From a virus (taxonomy: Duplodnaviria; Caudoviricetes): a DNA stretch of 64,000 bases. The stretch lies in IMG/VR virus record IMGVR_UViG_3300022719_000071, positions 256,001 through 320,000 of that record. One strand, written 5' to 3'. Numbering within the stretch: the stretch's first letter is position 1; every line of letters begins with the position of its first letter. The position numbers were made by a program, and so were the translations under genes. Under the pieces are notes generated by a model. That model made no database searches. It saw only the letters and a program-made list of their open reading frames with translations, and was not told the DNA's origin. This document shows positions 13,540 to 54,169 of the stretch, piece after piece.

Positions 13540-13902
13540 ATGCGTTACGTTCTTAATTTCAATCCAGAGGGTTCCGCTACTCTGAGTGAAGGCTATAATG
13601 GCTCTATTGAGTTCAAGAAGCTCCCCAAGGGTCTGAAGAGTGGTGCTGTTACGGCAGTTCGCTTCGCTGACAGCGGCAACGGTGTTGCCCCCCTGACTCC
13701 CCGTGATGAGGTTGGTAACCGTCTGGGTACCGTCATCAACGAGAAGATCGCCCGTGAGGTTGGTCTGAAGGGTCGCAAACGTTACATGCTTAAGCAGGTT
13801 GGTCGCAGTAACTGGTACAACCTCATTCCTCACAGCAACATCGGCAAGAAGGCTCGTCGCATCGATGGCCCTGGCGTGTCCGTGAGCATCATCGAGCGAT
13901 AA
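13540..13902 (+). CDS. Hypothetical basic protein
   Basis: AGGAG SD, highly biased codons, followed by terminator. Confidence 0.75.
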   Translation: MRYVLNFNPEGSATLSEGYNGSIEFKKLPKGLKSGAVTAVRFADSGNGVAPLTPRDEVGNRLGTVINEKIAREVGLKGRKRYMLKQVGRSNWYNLIPHSNIGKKARRIDGPGVSVSIIER

Positions 13903-13962: not shown

Positions 13963-14229
13963 ATGCCTACAACTGTAGTTCATTGCAAGAAGGAACGCTA
14001 CGATGTCTACATCGGTAGACCATCGAAATGGGGTAATCCTTTCAAAATTGGAAAAGATGGAACCAGAGAACAAGTCATCGAGAAATATCGAGTATGGCTT
14101 GCTGGTCAATGGGATCTCTTGGATAGTATTGACGAGCTAGAAGGAAAGGTGCTAGGTTGTCACTGTAAGCCCCTGGATTGCCATGGGGACGTTCTAGCGG
14201 AGTTGTCCAATGGCAGGCGAAAGGTTTGA
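13963..14229 (+). CDS. DUF4326 domain protein
   Basis: DVYIGRPSKWGNPF...LGCHCKP..CHGDVL consensus. Confidence 0.92.
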   Translation: MPTTVVHCKKERYDVYIGRPSKWGNPFKIGKDGTREQVIEKYRVWLAGQWDLLDSIDELEGKVLGCHCKPLDCHGDVLAELSNGRRKV

Positions 14230-14348
14230 AGTTCGCACATACACTGTGGATGAAGACAGAGACGACAAGACTATAGAAGAGTTCGTTTGTGTCCAAGCCC
14301 AATTCCATTAAGATGAAAAAGTGAGCCGATTACGTCGCAGGAGTTTCA

Positions 14349-15254
14349 ATGAAAAGGCTTCAGTATAACACCACTACAGTCGATGAAGTCCTGGAGTGTG
14401 TCGTGAACGACGGCTACGCTCTCATTGAAAATGTAGCCGATGAGCAAACTCTTGCTGCGATTAAATCAGAGTTGTCCCCACTTCTGAAAAACACTACGGG
14501 GAATAACCCTGAACCATTTCTTGGTGATCACACCAAGAGGTTTGGTCGTTTGGTGTATCGCATGCCTTCGACGCATCCAATCATTCAACATCCGTTGGCT
14601 ATGCATGTATGCGAGGACACCATTGGAAAGTACGCTTGCTCATTCCGTTTGTCTTTTACCGGAATCATGCACGTCATGGCAGGACAGAAAGCACAATCCC
14701 TTCACCGTGATATCACACCGTTCCCGTCTCCAGCACCCACGATGGCAATCGCAACTATGTGGGCTATCACAGATTTCACCCGTGAAAATGGAGCCACTGT
14801 GTTTGTACCTGGAAGCCACAAGTGGGACAATGAGCGTAAGCCAAAAAGAAAAGAGCTTACGTGTGCAGAGATGCCCGCTGGCTCGGTTCTAATCTACGAT
14901 GCCGCTCTCATCCATGGTGCCGGAAAGTGTGTAACCGGAGAGAGAACCGGACTAAGCCTCCAGTACAAGGTTGGCTGGTTACGTCAAGAGGAGAACCAGT
15001 ATCTAGCTACTCCTTTGGAGTTTGCCAAGACACTACCAGAGAGCATGCAACGTCTCATCGGATACGACCTTGCGGCACGTCATTGGGGTGCAGTTGACCA
15101 GCAGCATCCCCTGGACTTCTTGAATGGTGACAATCGAGTTGGTACACTGGAGCCACCTGGATACGATTACGAGAATCGAGTGGTGGAACTAGAAGCCAAG
15201 GAACGTGGATTGTCTACCAAGACACGTTTCGACGTAACTCTTGACAATGAGTAA
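14349..15254 (+). CDS. Phytanoyl-CoA dioxygenase (PhyH) family 2OG-Fe(II) oxygenase
   Basis: LHRD (HxD), WAITDFTRENGATVFVPGSH, IHGAG. Confidence 0.9.
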   Translation: MKRLQYNTTTVDEVLECVVNDGYALIENVADEQTLAAIKSELSPLLKNTTGNNPEPFLGDHTKRFGRLVYRMPSTHPIIQHPLAMHVCEDTIGKYACSFRLSFTGIMHVMAGQKAQSLHRDITPFPSPAPTMAIATMWAITDFTRENGATVFVPGSHKWDNERKPKRKELTCAEMPAGSVLIYDAALIHGAGKCVTGERTGLSLQYKVGWLRQEENQYLATPLEFAKTLPESMQRLIGYDLAARHWGAVDQQHPLDFLNGDNRVGTLEPPGYDYENRVVELEAKERGLSTKTRFDVTLDNE

Positions 15255-15271
15255 AGAATGGTAAATAATAT

Positions 15272-15521
15272 CATTGCTGTAAACGTGGGCAAAAGCAGGA
15301 GCCTGTCGAAAGCGGGGAATAAACCCTAGTCTATCACGAGCACAGGGTGGCCATGCGGTGCGAAGAACACGTGATGATCCAAGCGGTGAACCCGAAGGGT
15401 AGCGTGACCGACCGAGCGGAGCCGGAAAACTATACGTAAGCCCGATGGCGCTGACGGTAGGCAATCGGTAGAATCGTTGCCGGGAATAGTAGATCCGGTA
15501 CAGCAATGTTGCTCCACAGGC
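15272..15521 (+). ncRNA. Candidate structured non-coding RNA of unknown family
   Basis: GC-rich intergenic block after TTGACA (15241); 9-bp long-range helix 15272-80/15500-08 and several internal hairpins. Confidence 0.45.
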
Positions 15522-15544
15522 ATAGATAACGATGTAAAGCCAAT

Positions 15545-15619
15545 GCCGATGTAGTTTAGTTGGTAAAACCGGGCACTCGTAACGCTCAGTCGTCAGTTCG
15601 ATTCTGACCATCGGCTCCA
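15545..15619 (+). tRNA. tRNA-Thr(CGT)
   Basis: GCCGATG/CATCGGC acceptor, CT-CGT-AA loop, encoded CCA. Confidence 0.9.
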
Positions 15620-21333: not shown

Positions 21334-21409
21334 GGACTCGTAGCTCAATTGGCAGAGCACCCGGCTCTTAACCCGGGGGTTGCAGGATCGTTGCCTGCCG
21401 AGTCCACCA
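21334..21409 (+). tRNA. tRNA-Lys(CTT), atypical T loop
   Basis: CT-CTT-AA; T loop ATCGTTG; CCA. Confidence 0.88.
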
Positions 21410-22541: not shown

Positions 22542-22777
22542 TAAATATACATCACACGAATAGGAGGAACCCAGAATGGGAAGTACACGATTACAGATTA
22601 TCTCTGGTGTCTCCTGTTCCACAGGAAGTACCACCGTCGTATTGTATATCATATAATGCCCGGGAAAAAGCTTCGAGTGAGTGAGTGCAAGAAATGTCAT
22701 GCACAGTTCTTGCGTGAACGAGTTGAAGATGTAATCTAATGCGGTGAAAGCATTTAAGTAATTATAAATACAACTGA

Positions 22778-27929: not shown

Positions 27930-27971
27930 ACCTTGACAATGAATTCGGTTGTGACTATAAATACAGGAGAA

Positions 27972-49970: not shown

Positions 49971-50001
49971 TTGACTTTACGGAGAACCTGCCCTATATAA
50001 T
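49971..50001 (+). promoter_or_regulatory. Sigma70-type promoter for the Y RNA/rsr locus
   Basis: TTGACT then TATATAAT at 17-19 nt; +1 falls near 50007. Confidence 0.7.
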
Positions 50002-50006
50002 ACACA

Positions 50007-50086
50007 AGACCTGGGTCGAAGCTGTTTCGTTATCGTAATTGGTACATTAAAAGCGGAACAGCAGAACCTTATCCGGGGCTTAATTT
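50007..50086 (+). ncRNA. Y RNA 1 (YrlB/metazoan-type fold)
   Basis: 5'/3' helix with bulged C50017 (GGGUCGA/UUAUCC), 10-bp upper stem 50021-30/50053-62, AU-rich loop, U tail. Confidence 0.75.
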
Positions 50087-50091
50087 TTGAA

Positions 50092-50207
50092 GGCTGCGAG
50101 CCGAACGACAGATCATTATCGTTCATGTATAAACGGCGAGATGGTTCGATTCCATCATAGGTCTGGCGACACGTTAAAATTGGTCTGGCACCAACTTGTT
50201 CGCAACC
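50092..50207 (+). ncRNA. Y RNA 2 (YrlA-type tRNA mimic)
   Basis: Bulged-C helix GGCTGCGAGC-C-GA/TTGTTCGCAACC; T arm GATGG-TTCGATT-CCATC; D-like arm TTGGT-CTGGC-ACCAA. Confidence 0.78.
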
Positions 50208-50218
50208 AAGAAGAAAAA

Positions 50219-50255
50219 GCCCGGAGGGGACGCCCAGCGCCCCTCCGGGCTTTTT
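50219..50255 (+). terminator. Intrinsic terminator between Y RNAs and rsr
   Basis: 11-bp GC stem, TTTTT tail, A5 on the 5' side. Confidence 0.85.
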
Positions 50256-50299
50256 CGTTTCTACAACATACCCGATTGGACATCGGGGAGGAATACATC

Positions 50300-52084
50300 A
50301 TGGCAAACTACGCAAGAATTTCGGGCAAGACCCGTCGAAACACTCATCAGACTTCACAGACGAAGGCAATCCCTGGTCGTGAAATCGAGATGAAGAAAAA
50401 TCCGGCTGGAGGCGTGAGCTTCAAGTTGGACGACTTCGCTCGTCTACAGCGATTCATCATCCTCGGAGTTGAGGGGAACAGCTACTACCAGAGTCAGAAG
50501 ACCCTGGTGAATCAGAACGTGAGTTCTCTGGAGCGCTGTCTGGACGCTGATCCGTTCCGTGTCATTGACATGGTTGTGGACATTAGTGTGAACGGTCGTG
50601 CCTTCAAGCAGGACGCTGGACTCTTCGTGTTAGCTGCTGCCGCTTCTTTCAAGGGTGGCGTGCGCTCCGGTCGCAAGAGCCCGCCGAACCGCAATCGATT
50701 CCAGTACGAGGAGAACTACCAGCAGGCTCTAGCCGAGTATGAGGCTTCCATCGTCATCGTGGACGAGGAGCACGCAGTCAAGGTTCGTCAGTACGCACTG
50801 GAGAAGCTGCCACAGGTGGCTCGTACCGGTACGGCGCTGTACACGTTCGCTGAGTTTGTACGTGGTCAGCGTGGATTCGGTCGCAGCCTGCGTCGTGCAT
50901 TCGCAAAGTGGATGACTGACAAGCCGCTAGACAAGCTGGCCTATCAGGCATGGAAGTACAAGAGCCGTAACGGCTGGACGTACCGTGACATCATGCGCCT
51001 CACGCACCCGGTAACAGACGAGCGTGCACGTTCAGACGTGTTCGGATATATGGTGAAGGGACAGCTACCGGAAGGTGCTGACCTGAGCAACCCGGCCCTG
51101 GCACAGATCGATGCGGCTGAAAAGCTGCTGAAGATCATGACCAACCGTACTAACGTGACCAAGCCGGTCGTCAAGGAAGCTGTCAAGCTCATCGTTGACC
51201 ATCGCCTGACTCACGAGGCTGTTCCGTCCGAGCTTCGCAAGAGCCCAGAGGTTTGGGAGGCTCTGCTGGAGAACATGCCGCTTCAGGCTGCTGTCAGCAA
51301 CCTGGGTGTCATGACCAGCACTGGTCTGGTCAAGCCACTGTCGAAGGCAGAGCGAAAGATCGTGGAGATGCTTACCAACGTCGAAGCAATCAAGCGTTCT
51401 CGCATGCACCCGATGCGGTTCTACCTTGGTTCCAAGGTCTACGGCAATGGTCGTGGCGTGAAGGGTAGCCTGTCCTGGTCGCCAAGCCAGAACATCATGG
51501 ACGCTCTGGATGGTGCGTACTACGCATCCTTCGGTAACGTCGAGACGACTGGCAAGACACTGGTCATCGCTGTCGATGACTCGGGTTCTATGGACTGGGC
51601 TAACACTTCGGTTCCGAACACTAGTCCATCGGAGATTGCTGCGGCAATGGCGCTGGTCACGTACCGCACTGAGCCGAACAGCGTGCTGATCGGTTATTCT
51701 GATGGTGTTCGTGAGATGAAGGTGTCTCGTACACGTTCTCGCATCGACAGCATCATGAAGCATGTCGGTCATGGCGGTGGAACCAACACCACACTCCCGG
51801 TGCAGTACGCCTGGAACAACAAGCTGGACGTTGATGGCATCGTGTCCTACACAGACAACAACACCTGGGGCGCATGCTCTCGGGGCTGGAACAGTAATGG
51901 ACATGTTACCCAGTGGGTGAATAAGTACGTGGATCGCTTCGGTCCAATGCGCTTCATCAACTGTGCGATGGAGGCAAACAGTATCACTGATACTGATGCC
52001 AAGAATCCGTACATGTTCGAGCTTGTCGGTGTTGACGCCAATACCCCACGCATCATTAGCGAGTTCCTTGCTGGTAACCTGTAA
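50300..52084 (+). CDS. rsr: Ro60 / Rsr (TROVE plus vWA domain) RNA-binding protein
   Basis: NPAGGVSF...RLQRFIILG...SYY; YKSRNGWTYRDIMRLTHP; MPLQAAVSNLG; MHP; AVDDSGSM; GGTNTTLP; YTDN; VGVDANTP; GGAGG SD before ATG 50300. Confidence 0.95.
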   Translation: MANYARISGKTRRNTHQTSQTKAIPGREIEMKKNPAGGVSFKLDDFARLQRFIILGVEGNSYYQSQKTLVNQNVSSLERCLDADPFRVIDMVVDISVNGRAFKQDAGLFVLAAAASFKGGVRSGRKSPPNRNRFQYEENYQQALAEYEASIVIVDEEHAVKVRQYALEKLPQVARTGTALYTFAEFVRGQRGFGRSLRRAFAKWMTDKPLDKLAYQAWKYKSRNGWTYRDIMRLTHPVTDERARSDVFGYMVKGQLPEGADLSNPALAQIDAAEKLLKIMTNRTNVTKPVVKEAVKLIVDHRLTHEAVPSELRKSPEVWEALLENMPLQAAVSNLGVMTSTGLVKPLSKAERKIVEMLTNVEAIKRSRMHPMRFYLGSKVYGNGRGVKGSLSWSPSQNIMDALDGAYYASFGNVETTGKTLVIAVDDSGSMDWANTSVPNTSPSEIAAAMALVTYRTEPNSVLIGYSDGVREMKVSRTRSRIDSIMKHVGHGGGTNTTLPVQYAWNNKLDVDGIVSYTDNNTWGACSRGWNSNGHVTQWVNKYVDRFGPMRFINCAMEANSITDTDAKNPYMFELVGVDANTPRIISEFLAGNL

Positions 52085-53152: not shown

Positions 53153-53215
53153 GGATTTGCCCATTATAAATGATAAATATGGGTTTAGTGTTTATCATTG
53201 TAGGGATATAACCAT

Positions 53216-54085: not shown

Positions 54086-54169
54086 ATGTTAGGATATCTA
54101 TAAAATCGTTGCCCGCTACCGATGATATACTCCTGAACCGGATAAATACTGGTTCAGGGGTATAAACGT

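Follow-up and report, generated by a model that had tools for sequence, protein, structure and literature searches.

A conserved structured non-coding RNA in the tRNA-gene region of uncultured jumbo phages

The stretch of 64,000 nucleotides (nt) analysed here, referred to as the window, comprises bases 256001-320000 of the 360,469-bp IMG/VR virus record IMGVR_UViG_3300022719_000071, and positions are given in window coordinates unless stated otherwise. Between a gene for a PhyH-family dioxygenase (14349-15254) and a tRNA-Thr(CGU) gene (15545-15619), inside a 15-kb region rich in tRNA genes, lies a block with a G+C content of 0.55, compared with ~0.46 around it. This block encodes, at 15272-15508, a genuine structured non-coding RNA, which is kept in five lineages of related uncultured phages. 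In our favoured reading, to which we assign a probability of roughly 0.6, the product would be a stable, compactly folded RNA of ~237 nt that acts in trans and is excised from a tRNA precursor by tRNA-processing enzymes. A first-pass annotation of the sequence had proposed a new, unassigned phage RNA of ~250 nt (block 15241-15540) with its own promoter and attached to a tRNA, and had named covariation among homologues as a check. That observation is partly confirmed: its main inference is supported by compensatory changes in five lineages, by purifying selection, and by the lack of any matching family in Rfam 15, whereas the RNA is 237 nt long and parts of the proposed fold were not upheld.

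Homologues and distribution of the RNA

The nearest homologues of the upstream PhyH protein are encoded on contigs L002 (98% identical protein), L003 (66%), and L004/L005 (57%), and a clearly alignable copy of the block is present downstream of the PhyH gene in all of them. A second syntenic gene, which encodes a 120-amino-acid (aa) protein (13540-13902), led to two further sets of relatives, L025 and L026-L028, whose copies score 121 and 137 bits, respectively, with the covariance model. In the 360-kb genome of the window, the RNA scores 293 bits and is single-copy; a search for a second copy found none.

No other relatives were obtained. The PhyH homologues more distant than those listed above are not syntenic and lack the RNA, and locus searches of IMG/VR by way of PhyH or the DNA polymerase returned no syntenic relatives. 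The block had no match in a DNA similarity search against 50,697 GenBank phages, nor did its four conserved blocks, used as patterns, across IMG/VR. A first scan of metagenomes of the Joint Genome Institute (JGI) yielded no match to the RNA, while a second JGI scan and a scan of the GTDB genomes gave two matches each, all of them chance matches inside protein genes that the model rejects. The family-B DNA polymerase of the phage shares ~35% identity with its counterparts in Ralstonia phage RsoM2USA, Agrobacterium phage Atu_ph07, Salicola phage SCTP-2, and other jumbo myoviruses of this kind. Models R1 and R2 of the RNA found no match in five cultured jumbo phages, namely RsoM2USA, Atu_ph07, Vibrio phage 2.275.O, SCTP-2, and XaC1. 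The clade that carries the RNA is a small group of uncultured jumbo myoviruses, distantly akin to RsoM2USA and Atu_ph07. The stretch is present in four DNA sequencing runs of one study, and no RNA run is listed.

Comparative evidence for a structured non-coding RNA

In the model-fitted alignment of the homologues, standard pairs occupy 90% of the cells, compared with 33-42% when the partners are slid by 1-3 columns, and 20 of the 56 pairs are kept through changes on both sides; these values were reached by none of 500 shuffles. Because a model-fitted alignment leans towards the covariance model, the test was repeated on a structure-blind MAFFT alignment with RNAalifold, which recovered the same helices with compensatory changes in 24 of 60 pairs. 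The single-sequence folding energy of the window RNA is no better than that of shuffled sequences (z = +0.99), and the single-sequence z-scores are weak overall (+0.99, +0.15, -1.78, and -2.31), so that the case for structure rests on comparative data and not on thermodynamics.

The RNA is also under strong purifying selection. Between L002 and the window, where the synonymous divergence of the PhyH gene is 0.053, the RNA shows no difference over 237 nt, with 12.6 expected (P about 2e-6). The functional tRNA-Thr gene shows none over 75 nt, while the 36 nt between the RNA and this tRNA contain five.

No reading frame is conserved across the homologues. The plus strand of the block contains no open reading frame (ORF) of more than 30 codons, in agreement with its description as non-coding in the first-pass annotation, and long open frames occur only on the minus strand, as a consequence of its C/U-rich composition. 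Although a stop-free minus-strand frame spans the element in four of the five lineages, these frames shift phase along the alignment between homologues, and L025 has stops in all six frames.

The element was also compared with Rfam 15, which covers RNase P, transfer-messenger RNA (tmRNA), signal recognition particle RNA, 6S RNA, group I and II introns, GOLLD, ROOL, HEARO, riboswitches, and self-cleaving ribozymes. There was no match over the element at the gathering threshold and none at E values up to 10 in the window, L003, L004, and L025. The earlier failure to match RNase P, tmRNA, signal recognition particle RNA, or group I/II introns by inspection is borne out to E = 10. The RNA constitutes an uncatalogued family, restricted to one narrow clade of uncultured phages.

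Secondary structure

The consensus fold consists of a closing helix (P1), which encloses local hairpins, a long-range helix (P4), and an inner domain delimited by P5 (Table 1). A conserved asymmetric internal loop separates P4 from P5. Conservation is highest in the block that runs from the 3' strand of P5 to that of P4, which contains nine consecutive invariant bases and, in addition, GAC and AGGCA in all five lineages.

Table 1. Positions of the RNA, its structural elements, and the adjoining features in the window
Feature	Position	Strand	Remarks
Promoter-like site of sigma-70 type	15241-15269	+	TTGACA, 17-nt spacer, AATAAT; 11 of 12 consensus matches
TAAATA box	15262-15267	+	overlaps the sigma-70-type site
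RNA gene	15272-15508	+	237 nt; covariance model; homologues in L003, L004/L005, L025, and L026-28
P1	15272-15280 with 15500-15508	+	clamps both RNA ends; inner 4-5 pairs invariant, outer pairs covary
P2 hairpin	15284-90 with 15301-08	+	variable loop; double changes in 3 of 7 pairs; 94% of cells paired
Single-stranded junction with CGAA motif	15306-15313	+	identical in 4 of 5 lineages; altered in L025
P3 hairpin	15314-17 with 15324-27	+	closing pair G-U, G-C, or U-A, depending on lineage
P4 long-range helix	15329-15335 with 15456-15462	+	double changes in 3 of 7 pairs; 97% of cells paired
Kink-turn-like loop A	15336-15341 with 15448-15455	+	non-bulged strand GA then GC; bulged strand GC, 3-nt variable bulge, GA, C
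P5	15345-15348 with 15440-15443	+	encloses the inner domain; invariant G-C, uninformative for covariation
Variable inner domain	15349-15439	+	holds kink-turn-like loop B
Kink-turn-like loop B	15368-72 (stem), 15373-75 (bulge), 15376-77 (GA), 15378-80 (stem); opposite strand 15397-15406	+	
Most conserved block	15440-15462	+	P5 3' strand, junction, bulged strand of loop A, P4 3' strand
P6 hairpin	15463-15478	+	weakly conserved; pairing kept with bulges; outside the consensus model
P7 hairpin	15479-84 with 15494-99	+	conserved 9-nt loop; stacks directly on P1; double changes in 2 of 6 pairs
Decayed 5' half of ancestral tRNA-Thr(CGU)	15511-15544	+	acceptor strand, D arm, and start of the anticodon stem; not part of the RNA
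Functional tRNA-Thr(CGU)	15545-15619	+	called by ARAGORN; 59 bits in Rfam; has replaced the ancestral copy, to which it is not orthologous

The sequence features quoted in the first-pass annotation are all present where it placed them, and the homologue collection, with its five lineages and compensatory pairs, makes it possible to say which of them belong to the fold. The closing helix that it had proposed corresponds to P1 and covaries in the five lineages, and the CCGGG/TCCGG hairpin corresponds to P7 and covaries as well. A GGCAA/TTGCC hairpin is kept in part. On the other hand, the ACCC-GAA-GGGT hairpin is specific to the window lineage, and its G run belongs to loop B. Two further long-range helices (15285-92 with 15509-17 and 15301-05 with 15517-21) were not retained: their 3' halves lie in the decayed 5' half of a tRNA-Thr, outside the RNA, and position 15519, which is needed for the second of them, already differs in L002. 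Their 5' halves pair with each other as the covarying P2 hairpin, and the pseudoknot or alternative fold that had been suggested on this basis is an artefact of the neighbouring tRNA remnant.

Two conserved internal loops appear, as judged from their sequence, to fit the kink-turn consensus. Both combine a Watson-Crick stem, a 3-nt bulge of lineage-specific sequence, and an invariant GA, with a GA on the opposite strand that adjoins the same stem. In loop A, the GA on the bulged side never varies, each lineage has its own 3-nt bulge sequence, and four of the five lineages have the GA of the opposite strand; three lineages match the signature without deviation, and the remaining two contain one extra base. 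The pattern of loop B (stem, NNN, GA, YCC ... GGS, (G/U)A, stem) is found in all five lineages, with an A-U at the second pair in the window, and the stems that flank it covary. The presence of two loops of this kind would imply a tight tertiary fold.

Flanking tRNA genes and promoter-like sequences

The RNA lies close to tRNA genes in most of the relatives. Downstream of P1, tRNA-Thr(CGU) begins after 3 nt in L003 and 5 nt in L004, and tRNA-Leu(UAA) begins after 3 nt in L026. On the upstream side, a tRNA-Ile(GAU) in L003 and L004 ends, with its CCA, precisely at the start of the invariant P1 core. In the window, the tRNA-Ile gene is missing, the promoter-like site abuts P1, and a tRNA remnant begins 2 nt after P1. 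A scan of the window and its relatives found no terminator-like site between the RNA and the next tRNA.

The remnant aligns with the intact tRNA-Thr(CGU) genes that directly follow the RNA in L003 and L004, and it evolves at or above the neutral rate (5/36 differences from L002). Together with the non-orthologous tRNA-Thr(CGU) that follows it, the remnant represents a tRNA gene replacement caught mid-process. In L002, the remnant is still able to form a 7-bp hairpin, which is broken by two G-to-A changes in the window.

Just upstream of the RNA, the sigma-70-type site of the window, which ends at 15269, is a candidate for the start of transcription. Each of the five lineages has a TAAATA box 1-5 nt ahead of its first structured RNA, be it tRNA-Ile or the RNA itself, and in L026 the RNA is preceded by a terminator-like hairpin in addition to the box. 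Copies of ATAAATA or TTAAATA number 12 in the window, which is no more than expected by chance, but 11 of them are on the gene strand. The motif, which we take to resemble the core of T4 late promoters, is mostly found just upstream of genes or tRNAs, e.g. at 22764-22770, 27957-27963, 53173-53179, and 54142-54148. The T4 species RNA C and RNA D are counted among the late RNAs (PMC9697503).

Other genes of the region

In total, 42 tRNA genes and one doubtful permuted tmRNA (C1:78941-79376) were called by ARAGORN in the record. The calls include an amber-suppressor tRNA (anticodon CUA, labelled Pyl) at C1:22700-22777 of the genome, outside the window, and a tRNA with a four-base anticodon (CTTA, in an 8-nt loop) at 21334-21409, next to a tRNA-Phe, which scores 57 bits with the Rfam tRNA model. 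In L026, the same tRNA-rich region encodes, at 14030-15478, a WGR/PARP-domain protein (poly-ADP-ribose polymerase-like) and a peptide deformylase.

The family of the 120-aa protein has 19 homologues, which are confined to this phage clade, and its synteny with the RNA extends to each of the five lineages. Its AlphaFold model is mostly beta-strand, with a mean predicted local distance difference test score (pLDDT) of 86. The protein gives no clue to an RNA-binding partner, because a comparison with PDB folds returned no match (best E = 0.22).

Proposed biogenesis and possible role of the RNA

We propose that the RNA belongs to a tRNA operon as one of its modules and is co-transcribed with the tRNAs from a promoter just upstream. 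Its 3' end would arise when RNase P cleaves at the 5' end of the downstream tRNA, 2-5 nt beyond P1; its 5' end would be set either by transcription initiation or by 3' maturation of the abutting upstream tRNA-Ile. P1 clamps both ends together and should shield them from exonucleases. P1 encloses a multi-helix junction whose single-stranded joints are invariant in sequence, and this junction and the two kink-turn-like loops would form the body of an RNA that acts in trans in the infected cell, its likeliest role being that of a protein-binding RNA or scaffold linked to tRNA or RNA metabolism. A protein-binding function with such a link is probable in general terms; our confidence is moderate for the proposed biogenesis and low for any specific activity.

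Several observations weigh against this proposal. The transcript ends, the stability, and the processing are all predicted from sequence. Immediate adjacency to a tRNA is not universal, since in L025 a 129-codon ORF is inserted between the RNA and tRNA-Thr(CGU). In L004, the outer five pairs of P1 use the last bases of tRNA-Ile, including its CCA (the ACCA end), so that the full helix can exist only in the precursor; this extension is at least as easily reconciled with a function of the precursor as with one of the released RNA. A sigma-70-type promoter was detected in the window lineage but, in the same scan, in none of the relatives. No L7Ae-type kink-turn-binding protein was found in a search of the phage, and these data point to no protein or RNA partner. 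Five lineages are known, and the covariation statistics are modest and phylogenetically correlated.

The L004 arrangement bears most directly on the first alternative, namely that the element is a cis-acting spacer, folded only in the precursor, which separates the tRNAs or presents them to RNase P, RNase E, and the 3' trimming enzymes and is then degraded. The wedging of the RNA between tRNAs with gaps of 0-5 nt speaks for such a role, as does the recruitment of the last five bases of tRNA-Ile into P1, which allows the full helix only before processing. However, the long invariant unpaired joints and the two kink-turn-like loops far exceed what a spacer needs, and other tRNA pairs in the same genome are 2-10 nt apart without any such element. 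Moreover, the RNA persists without an upstream tRNA in the window, L025, and L026 and without an adjacent downstream tRNA in L025. We therefore regard a mere spacer as unlikely.

A different possibility, which we hold to be less probable again, is that the RNA is an active partner in the maturation or supply of tRNAs, with a ligand- or protein-responsive fold that gates the release of the phage tRNAs, or that it forms an RNA-only particle by self-assembly in the manner of ROOL and GOLLD, for both of which such assembly has reportedly been found of late. Gating is suggested by P1, which takes in the ACCA end of the upstream tRNA in some lineages and ends 2-5 nt before the next RNase P site in most.

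A further alternative is a riboswitch-type sensor, in which a ligand or protein stabilises P1 and thereby controls access of RNase P to the downstream tRNA or release of the 3' end of the upstream tRNA. The size of the RNA, its multi-helix junction, its invariant joints, and its candidate kink-turns would suit a sensor, as would the position of P1 against both tRNA processing sites; kink-turns occur in the SAM-I, lysine, and T-box RNAs. But neither a terminator/antiterminator nor a ribosome-binding-site expression platform was found downstream, where a tRNA gene comes next. The RNA matches none of the known riboswitch families, and L025 has no adjacent tRNA. A sensor of this type is, in our estimation, decidedly improbable.

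The phage encodes a full orthologue of the Ro60 protein at 50300-52084, and the RNA might accordingly be its Y RNA partner. The closing stem formed by the 5' and 3' ends and the CGAA-containing joint near the 5' end are shared with Y RNAs (PMC4201824, PMC12135203), the window copy matches the GNCGAAN0-1G motif proposed for Rsr binding (PMC4201824), and no canonical YrlA RNA passes the Rfam cut-off in the genome. Against this, the RNA is 35 kb from the Ro60 gene, is twice the usual size of a Y RNA (237 nt versus 80-130 nt), has neither a T nor a D arm, and is not matched by RF02553. The motif itself is present in the window only: three lineages have U or A in place of its first G, and in L025 it is altered. 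There is, furthermore, a much better candidate directly upstream of Ro60, and a Y RNA function of the element seems very doubtful to us.

That candidate lies at 49973-50290, within the 330 nt that immediately precede the Ro60 gene. A promoter-like site comes first, then an RNA of ~160 nt, and a strong intrinsic terminator closes the unit. This RNA carries the GNCGAAN0-1G motif close to its 5' end, together with a perfect tRNA-type T arm and a stem that joins its two ends; in all probability it is a Y RNA of the YrlA type that escapes the Rfam YrlA model. The adjacent Ro60/Rsr orthologue has 594 aa with TROVE and Ro60 vWA domains.

It is equally hard to sustain that the RNA is a ribozyme, either a reduced RNase P-like catalyst for the phage tRNAs or a self-cleaving element that frees them. 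The tRNA context and the complex fold with invariant joints are compatible with catalysis, and two blocks, read by eye, superficially resemble the RNase P conserved regions CR-I and CR-V, but no RNase P or self-cleaving family was matched even at E = 10 in any of the four lineages searched. An RNase P-like P4 pairing, also sought by eye, was rejected: each of the two candidate strands belongs to a local hairpin that covaries, which leaves no P4 pseudoknot.

Finally, the view that there is no RNA gene at all, and that the block is a protein gene, either decayed or on the minus strand, or else a spacer that is GC-rich by chance, draws on the stop-free minus-strand frame and the unremarkable folding energy but is already refuted as far as sequence data allow, given that the open frames are in different phases with stops in all frames of L025, that the ORF in the window would have to extend across a tRNA gene, and that the compensatory changes and the absence of divergence from L002 would be left unexplained.

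Comparison with known RNAs

The closest analogues of the RNA are the T4 stable RNAs, species 1 and 2 (rnaC, 139 nt, and rnaD, 119 nt), and the phage itself falls within the wider T4-like polymerase lineage. To our knowledge, no structured RNA co-transcribed with phage tRNAs has been assigned a function since T4 RNA C and RNA D were described in the 1970s. In T4, rnaD lies 1 nt downstream of tRNA-Arg and is followed by rnaC at a distance of 6 nt; like the RNA described here, both are non-coding and lie in a phage tRNA cluster, on the tRNA strand and within a few nt of their neighbours. The RNA differs from them in that it is about twice as long, is located at the head or in the interior of the operon and not at its tail, and carries kink-turn-like loops. 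Model R1, run with filters off over the 69.5-74.5 kb region of T4, gave a best score of 6 bits and no hit on rnaC or rnaD. The role of rnaC and rnaD is unknown after 50 years (PMC3014915).

GOLLD, ROOL, and the other large, ornate RNAs of phages and prophages are likewise elaborately structured RNAs of unknown function that are often found beside phage tRNA genes, but the RNA has only a third to half of their size, is confined to one narrow phage clade, and has no Rfam match. The first-pass annotation had compared it with GOLLD; the likeness as a tRNA-adjacent phage RNA stands, and the T4-type stable RNAs of tRNA operons are the closer comparison. With the YrlA-type Y RNAs, which are bound by Ro60/Rsr, the RNA shares a closing stem, a CGAA joint, and a phage that encodes Ro60, but it is not adjacent to Ro60, lacks T and D arms, has twice the size, and does not conserve the motif. 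Its apparent likeness to kink-turn RNAs such as T-box leaders, the SAM-I and lysine riboswitches, and archaeal RNase P would consist of the stem, the 3-nt variable bulge, the tandem G-A/A-G, and the non-canonical stem; it matches none of these families and has no expression platform.

Significance

The kind of element described here is already known and recurrent, and what is new is a narrowly distributed family, found so far only in uncultured phages. It adds a well-defined, larger, and more ornate case, with a secondary structure supported by compensatory changes and two candidate kink-turn motifs. It also provides a natural experiment, in which the flanking tRNAs have been lost or replaced while the RNA was kept, and shows that such RNAs behave as independent modules that hold their place at a tRNA processing site despite the turnover of the tRNAs. 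Should a partner or an activity be identified, it would be relevant to the question of how giant phages that encode nearly complete sets of tRNAs run their own translation apparatus.

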